A DNA stretch of 64,000 nt from an uncultured Alphaproteobacteria bacterium (lineage in GTDB: Bacteria; Pseudomonadota; Alphaproteobacteria; JAJFIK01), in assembly GCA_964522525.1 (NCBI GenBank), contig CAZFWG010000015.1, positions 1,861 to 65,860 of the forward strand. Reading direction: 5' to 3'. The stretch's first letter is position 1; every line of letters starts with the position of its first letter. The position numbers and the translations under genes were made by a program. Below the pieces are notes generated by a model. The model made no database searches. It was not told the DNA's origin and saw only the letters and a program-made list of their open reading frames with translations. Shown one piece after another: positions 4,413 through 5,462 of this stretch.

Positions 4413-4800
4413 GCCGTGTCGGACGGGCGACGACCACGGGCGTTCTGGGGTAAGCCACGGGCCCCGCTATGCTCTGGCCTCGATGCCGCAGGTCCAAGGG
4501 CCTTGCTCCGCCGTTCGGCCCGCCTGACTCACACCGCAGATTTCCCCGGAAAGGTCCCTTCAAGGGGTTATGGCGTCTGGTTTCGGGGGCAAAGGGCTTG
4601 CGCGGCTCCTCCCGTTTAGGGCCTGTGCGCTGTCATTCCTCGCTAACGGATTCATCCCCGCTTGTGGACGGATTAAACCTGTTTAGGATGTACGCATGCG
4701 GCGGGTTTCTTATCCAGAGTTGCATCCCTTTCGAGGGGTGTTTCTCCTTTGCAACGCTTGTCGATCTTTTCCGTCCAAGACGCAATTTCGGCTCTGGTCA

Positions 4801-5008
4801 ATGTTGCGCAATTTTAATTTTCAGATTTTACTCCTTCTTACGGCCCCGATGGAGTTGGTGACGTCATGTCATCAGGTGGGGGCGGAACCGTTCACTTCAT
4901 GGGGATGAATAAGAACGGGCCCGGATCGATGTGGCTCGACGGATTGTTGTGTCCGGTCGATCCGGGAAAAGACGTCAGGGGGCCCACCTTCAGAGGTGGG
5001 CTCCTTTC
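4801..5008 (+). ncRNA. Candidate small RNA or structured regulatory element: AT-rich promoter-like box then two strong hairpins, the second terminator-like
   Basis: AT-rich TTGCGCAATTTTAATTTTCAGATTTTACT at 4801-4830. Palindrome TGACGTCA at 4859-4866 and GACGTCA at 4971-4977 flank a perfect 10-bp inverted repeat, CCCGGATCGA (4920-4929) and TCGATCCGGG (4965-4974). Then GCCCACC(4982-4988)/GGTGGGC(4995-5001) hairpin followed by TCCTTTC. No convincing ORF. Confidence 0.3.
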
Positions 5009-5462
5009 AGGCATTGCTTGGTGTGCGTCCTATTCCGGGCACTGAGCAGGCAATTCCCCGTTTTTCCGACCGCGCAGACTTTTCATTCTTAATTCATCCG
5101 ATTCCGGCTGCGGCCGTGGTCGCGTCTCTCTGGATCCTGAGGGATACCCGGAGCGTGTGTCTGGTGCGGATCATTGCCTCCCCGAGGCCGAAGGCCGATC
5201 TTCCCGTGACGGAAGAGTTGTTGCGGCGCCCGGAACACGCGGCCGAAGGGGCATCGCGGGCGCCGCCGCGAACATCTCGGGGGGCGGAATTGTGATCGCC
5301 CTGTCGCCGGGGTTTGCTTGTCGAGTGGTTGGATTGGCCCTACTCCTTGTGCCTTAATGTTAACCGGACGACGGACACCTGACATGAGGGGTCCTTTGAA
5401 GCCGGAAACCAAAGAGCCCGGACGGCACTGCCTTCGGGCCAAGGGACGAGGAGGGGACGGCC

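Follow-up and report, generated by a model that had tools for sequence, protein, structure and literature searches.

The window analysed here is a stretch of 64,000 nucleotides of chromosomal DNA from an uncultured alphaproteobacterium, with a GC content of approximately 62%. Within it, a GST-family gene ends at position 4412 and the gene for a GDSL/RTX lipase (5463-7085) opens with an ATG at 5463. The DNA between these two genes carries an AT-rich patch, a cluster of four hairpins and the upstream region of the lipase gene (Table 1).

Table 1. Features of the gap between the GST and lipase genes. Positions are those of the window; z values of the four hairpins are relative to dinucleotide shuffles.
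Feature	Position	Strand	Remarks
Non-coding gap	4413-5462	none	between GST gene and GDSL/RTX lipase gene; 1,050 nt
Terminator-like hairpin	4722-4751	+	GCAUCCCU-UUCG-AGGGGUGU, then U-rich tail UUCUCCUUUG; -11.4 kcal/mol, z -2.6
AT-richest patch of the window	4800-4839	+	weak resemblance to a promoter; includes palindrome TTGCGCAA (4804-4811)
Hairpin 1	4841-4886	+	-22.1 kcal/mol, z -3.3; TGACGTCA (4859-4866) is part of the upper stem
Hairpin 2	4888-4918	+	-10.3 kcal/mol, z -2.9
Hairpin 3	4920-4966	+	-28.4 kcal/mol, z -4.5; perfect 10-bp inverted repeat CCCGGATCGA/TCGATCCGGG at the base
Linker, single-stranded	4967-4977	+	AAAAGACGUCA; holds the second GACGTCA
Hairpin 4	4978-5005	+	12-bp GC-rich stem, loop UCAG; -23.5 kcal/mol, z -5.05; followed by UUCAGGCAUUGCUU
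Block shared with closest lipase ortholog	5305-5345	+	TTG-C..AG.GG..GGATTGGC..TA..CCT; partial resemblance between two sequences only
Short lipase 5' leader (probable)	5345-5462	+	moderately structured, z -2.25

Does the gap encode a protein? There is no frame-specific GC signal anywhere across 4413-5462, and no other segment of the window without codon periodicity comes near the length of 4291-5505, the runners-up measuring 585 and 465 nt. A mild codon-like blip of 150 nt is seen at 5100-5250, and the frame 4909-5292, which spans 128 amino acids, is the only mildly periodic one. A codon-usage model was trained on 16 of the window's genes; by its scores, all open reading frames (ORFs) of the gap fall within the non-coding range, like wrong-frame ORFs, and about 99% of true-gene segments outscore each of them. 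Only the ORF at 4866-5045 (59 aa, with GGAG 10 nt upstream) has a plausible ribosome-binding site. It was rejected as a small protein because its codon usage is non-coding and it is not called in the independent assemblies.

Searches at the protein level are equally negative. The ten longest stop-to-stop segments of the gap have no match in Pfam, and a search of 5.8 billion proteins with its concatenated six-frame translation gave none at E <= 10. With tblastn, 5,033 ORFs taken from every locus retrieved and from the window outside the gap matched the gap at no more than 25 bits. An exhaustive HMMER search with the 128-aa frame 4909-5292 returned two matches only, both of which are artefacts comprising ~23-bit matches summed over unrelated tandem-repeat proteins. 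Since translated similarity was found in no frame, a gene remnant or pseudogene was rejected. The initial annotation had described a gene-free stretch of roughly 1 kb, which is borne out, and had named translated search as the check that might uncover a degraded gene, which it did not.

The gap sequence is base-for-base identical in two independent assemblies from other sequencing runs, and thus is not an assembly artefact. Both Logan assemblies start exactly at window position 3496, inside the 5' end of a GNAT gene that encodes a GGLLGGLLGGG repeat; this shared start is probably due to a k-mer repeat that breaks assembly graphs. A literature search found no paper for the sample accessions.

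The initial annotation had placed the most AT-rich patch of the window at 4801-4840. That placement essentially holds: the 30 nt at 4810-4839 contain 20% GC, the lowest value for this length in the window, and the 40 nt at 4800-4839 tie for the lowest. The patch with which they tie, at 45205-45244, is purine-rich (AAGAAAAGAAGAAAGATGAAAAAAAGAAGAAAC) and sits within long ORFs that have no Pfam match (45166-46590 on the plus strand). The AT-richest 30-40 nt of the window end 1-2 nt upstream of hairpin 1, and they include a weakly promoter-like arrangement in which TTGCGC (4804-4809) is followed after 17 nt by TTTACT (4827-4832); a transcript read from it would be expected to start near 4839-4841. 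A scan of 3400-6000 with the sigma-70 consensus accepted no promoter; this arrangement was not accepted because the candidate -10 element, TTTACT, lacks the near-invariant A at its second position (-11). Composition and position are thus what lead us to infer a promoter in the patch. What survives of the promoter-like AT box proposed previously is an AT-richest patch lying directly upstream of the hairpins, and not a sigma-70 site.

A CU-rich 8-mer that resembles an anti-Shine-Dalgarno sequence, TACTCCTT, is found twice in the gap. One copy lies at 4830-4837, just 5' of hairpin 1. The other, at 5332-5339, falls within the block that precedes the lipase gene, and the predicted fold pairs it with the Shine-Dalgarno region of that gene. 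Within 1 kb, an 8-mer is expected to recur by chance.

The four hairpins are consecutive and occupy the plus strand. Folded together (4840-5010, 171 nt), they reach -87.7 kcal/mol (z = -5.45 relative to dinucleotide-shuffled sequences), and each is significant alone by the same comparison (z -2.9 to -5.05). They have no sequence in common with each other. In an unbiased fold scan, 170-nt segments covering the 64 kb on both strands (n = 3,192) were compared after regression of energy on GC content; the segments 4841-5010 and 4881-5050, both on the plus strand, took ranks 1 and 2, at -4.4 and -4.3 sd. The minus strand of 4841-5010 is ordinary (GC-adjusted z -0.5). The difference in fold energy between the strands amounts to -25.3 kcal/mol, which is rank 5 of 1,596, and it is driven by G-U pairs, two of which (4978-5005 and 4981-5002) are found in hairpin 4. 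An asymmetry that stems from G-U pairs is meaningful only in plus-strand RNA, and therefore argues against an explanation in terms of DNA palindromes or protein binding. Thermodynamic stability alone, however, is no proof that the four-hairpin element has a function.

Several details of the initial annotation need adjustment. The perfect 10-bp inverted repeat that it had assigned to 4920-4974 exists, but its arms are 4920-4929 and 4957-4966, so that the true end is 4966. The GC-rich hairpin reported at 4982-5001 is present and is longer than described, with 12 bp between 4978 and 5005. Two GACGTCA-type motifs, TGACGTCA at 4859-4866 and AGACGTCA at 4970-4977, are located where they had been reported, but their reading as CRE-like palindromes was rejected: GACGTCA is found 13 times in the window against an expectation of 8.2 +/- 3.4, which is chance frequency, and the two copies fall in the stem of hairpin 1 and in the linker and do not make up a signal of their own. 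A repeated element of the REP or MITE type was likewise rejected within the 64-kb window, where the cluster has neither a second copy nor flanking terminal repeats.

Where might a transcript of this region end? A canonical intrinsic terminator was defined as a GC-rich stem followed at once by at least five T in 8 nt. Only 4722-4751 and 5298-5313 have this arrangement, and the fold of the latter is unremarkable (z -0.67); as a class, terminator-like sites are not enriched, with three found against 3.5 expected in shuffled sequence. The hairpin at 4722-4751 is the sole canonical-looking intrinsic terminator in the gap and could be where the GST transcript ends. Hairpin 4 was not called as an intrinsic terminator, as it has only three U downstream.

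The other genes of the window provide a local standard for comparison. Among the 25 gene ends examined, the clear hairpins have a GC-rich stem of 10-13 bp, a tetraloop and no U-run; examples are found after the lipase gene (7104-7133, plus strand) and after the M3 peptidase and histidine kinase genes (26762-26785, +/-). A further gene-end hairpin lies at about 1896-1939 on the minus strand; with it included, the stems measure 10-13 bp or more. Gene-end hairpins without a U-tract are thus the local norm, and the missing U-tract of hairpin 4 need not count against its being a 3' end. Hairpin 4 shares with them the 10-13 bp GC-rich stem, the 4-nt loop and the lack of a U-run. By contrast, the gene-end hairpins stand alone at about 15-35 nt from the stop codon, whereas hairpin 4 is the last of four, is located 565 nt past the nearest upstream stop codon and has the AT-rich patch upstream. 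The intrinsic-terminator-like end that had been claimed for this hairpin may hold in part: the hairpin is very stable and matches the gene-end style of the genome, but it lacks the canonical U-tract.

Does the element belong to a known family of RNAs? A search of the whole window with Rfam 15 (4,227 models) at gathering thresholds gave no matches. At E <= 10, the element region has only hairpin-level matches of 14-20 bits, against thresholds of 39-80. The best of these is BjrC68 (RF02353), on the minus strand, with 16.6 bits against a threshold of 39 and an E value of 0.53; the first hairpin of the model is deleted in the alignment and only the terminal hairpin aligns, where a member of the family would match both. 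A known RNA family was rejected because no Rfam match reaches its threshold, and the covariance search that had been named as a check thus yields no family, even at E <= 10.

Relatives of the locus were sought through the flanking genes and through the hairpins themselves. The closest homolog of the GST protein is 62% identical, and in GST relatives the gap downstream of the gene measures 0-20 nt; a scan of a genome collection with the GST protein found no relative. The closest homolog of the lipase is 61% identical, and its closest orthologs occur in Reyranella and in Rhodospirillales MAGs. When a covariance model built from the four hairpins (R1) was run over 668 kb of related loci, it recovered nothing but itself, two 15-bit matches inside coding sequence (L071 and L091) being treated as noise. 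Pattern scans of JGI metagenomes for the element, blastn against plasmids and phages, and exact-protein look-ups for the neighbouring genes all returned nothing. Thus, no homologous locus was found in any collection searched, and the only other copies are the identical ones in the two independent assemblies. Neither the GST gene nor the lipase gene keeps its neighbours in relatives, which indicates that the locus has been rearranged here.

The lipase gene has a ribosome-binding site, GAGGAGGGG, at 5448-5456 and encodes an N-terminus that agrees with the ortholog consensus. A scan with the lipase alignment gave 80 loci, of which only 4-5 hold full-length orthologs. In the orthologs L004, L006 and L008-L012, the gene is found in a different neighbourhood each time, and type I secretion genes are absent beside it here; the lipase gene appears to relocate often. 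In the seven full-length orthologs (42-61% identity) the non-coding upstream region is only about 150-400 nt long, and the hairpin model matches none of them. A long leader is therefore unsupported, contrary to the suggestion that the last 450 nt before the lipase gene form a long structured one.

Closer to the gene, the block at 5305-5345 lies at about -150 to -115 from the lipase ATG. It has a counterpart at about 5850-5885 in L004, the ortholog with 61% identity, and is absent from L006 and L008. Its position and its partial resemblance to this counterpart suggest that the lipase gene may have a proximal promoter or operator here, and on manual inspection it fits no sigma-70, sigma-54 or sigma-32 consensus. 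The segment that follows is probably a short lipase 5' leader; its predicted fold brings the Shine-Dalgarno region (5448-5456) into a helix with CCUUGU from around 5337-5345.

Trans-acting small RNAs (sRNAs) encoded in intergenic regions and built of multiple hairpins are known from alphaproteobacteria, for example the alpha-r families in Rfam, the AbcR type and the BjrC sRNAs of Bradyrhizobium. In general, such RNAs measure ~150-200 nt, have three to four stem-loops and come from an oversized, non-coding intergenic region, with an AT-rich patch upstream and a GC-rich terminal hairpin. The element described here resembles them in each of these respects. It differs in that it has no sequence or structure match in Rfam, no U-tract after the last hairpin, no identified conserved anti-Shine-Dalgarno loop motif and no homologs found.

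On these grounds, we tentatively propose that 4841-5006 on the plus strand is an orphan, lineage-specific sRNA gene of ~170 nt, the likeliest of the readings considered, though far from assured. The initial annotation had recognised the layout of a 150-200 nt sRNA, and much of that layout is present: a non-coding region, an exceptional fold that is specific to the plus strand, an AT patch directly upstream and a last hairpin of the gene-end type. The Rfam family, the sigma-70 promoter and the U-tract, represented by three U only, are the parts that are missing. The promoter, transcript ends, expression and mode of action that we infer for the candidate RNA are as follows. The transcript would begin where the AT-rich patch ends on its downstream side, at about 4835-4841, and would be an RNA of about 165-175 nt with four consecutive stem-loops, corresponding to 4841-5006. 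Hairpin 4 would form the 3' end, either by terminating transcription or by protecting the end of the RNA, which seems to be the role of the similar hairpins found after protein genes here. Other alphaproteobacterial sRNAs with multiple hairpins suggest by analogy that the RNA would be trans-acting and would base-pair with its partners through its loops or through the AAAAGACGUCA linker. Crude duplex folding against the 24 translation-start regions of the window, a method that ignores intramolecular structure, gave the same energies as shuffled controls and singled out no target.

The alternative that deserves most attention is that the gap consists of decayed or rearranged leftover DNA, for instance around the point at which the lipase gene arrived, and that the hairpins have no present role in an RNA gene; they could be former gene-end hairpins or palindromic spacer elements. 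The different context of the lipase gene at every ortholog locus and the near absence of a gap behind the GST gene in relatives are consistent with such a history, as are the lack of a detectable homolog of the gap in the collections searched, the exact likeness of hairpin 4 to an ordinary gene-end hairpin of this genome and the mild periodicity at 5100-5250. We nevertheless regard it as rather unlikely, because translated similarity is lacking even to genes that neighbour the orthologs and to all other ORFs of the window, and because four adjacent, significant hairpins on the same strand, right after the AT-richest patch, represent more order than random decay predicts. A DNA-level element is highly improbable. 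It would make the palindromes (TTGCGCAA, TGACGTCA and CCCGGATCGA/TCGATCCGGG) binding sites for proteins, or part of a site of replication, recombination or transfer, and several perfect palindromes are indeed clustered within 170 nt of the AT-rich patch. However, the strong strand asymmetry from G-U pairs would be meaningless in duplex DNA and GACGTCA is not enriched. Moreover, DnaA-box-like sites are at chance level, GC skew does not turn here, and the context is one of chromosomal housekeeping genes with no replication, relaxase, integrase or transposase genes nearby. On the last three counts (DnaA boxes, skew and neighbouring genes), a replication origin or dif site was rejected as well; by manual comparison, the AT patch matches the dif site of Escherichia coli poorly.

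Two further explanations attach the hairpins to one of the flanking genes, both of which lie on the same strand as the cluster. They could belong, as a cis-acting element, to a long leader of the lipase mRNA, which would run for ~620 nt from the AT patch, with hairpin 4 as a regulated terminator controlling read-through. The lack of a strong canonical terminator between 5006 and 5463 would permit this, given the weak fold of 5298-5313, and the segment 5321-5490 on the plus strand is moderately structured. Riboswitch and attenuator leaders similarly place a structured RNA upstream of a gene on the same strand, with a terminator-like hairpin at its end. In contrast to these, the element is separated from the start codon by 456 nt, a long distance for an attenuator or riboswitch. 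None of the orthologs examined has it upstream, and no riboswitch, leader or other cis-regulatory family was matched in Rfam. With the short upstream regions of the orthologs and a shared block that suggests a proximal promoter, a leader is unlikely. It is somewhat harder still to see the cluster as the 3' tail of the GST transcript, where the hairpins would protect or insulate, stopping read-through into the lipase gene, or would be the source of a processed, 3'-UTR-derived sRNA. Gene-end hairpins of like design are common in this genome and there is no convincing independent promoter, both of which fit a tail. Yet the cluster begins 429 nt past the GST stop codon, whereas other genes here have their hairpin within about 15-35 nt; the terminator-like hairpin with its U-rich tail and the AT patch intervene, and GST relatives have almost no 3' spacer.

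If the orphan sRNA is transcribed, it would add one more lineage-specific sRNA for an uncultured alphaproteobacterium and offer an entry point to regulation in the neighbourhood of a secreted lipase gene. Such orphan candidates are common, and this one alone would leave the general picture unchanged. It is conceivable, though doubtful, that these four hairpins represent the first member to be seen of an undescribed family of structured non-coding RNA, limited to an uncultured alphaproteobacterial lineage (Rhodospirillales-like, judging by the closest lipase orthologs), which may regulate the adjacent and apparently newly placed gene for the secreted lipase. The more useful lesson is a methodological one. 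Because gene-end hairpins here lack U-tracts, the usual criteria for intrinsic terminators will miss 3' ends in this lineage, and RNA-gene prediction should allow for gene ends that are free of U-tracts.

The window contains a second long structured intergenic region, of 336 nt, at 46291-46626 on the minus strand (-157 kcal/mol, z -3.98). It has no Rfam match at E <= 1 and is flanked, on the same strand, by a DegP-like protease gene (46627-48000) and by an ORF of 225 aa without a Pfam match (45613-46290). This region, too, may be a structured RNA or leader that has yet to be characterised.
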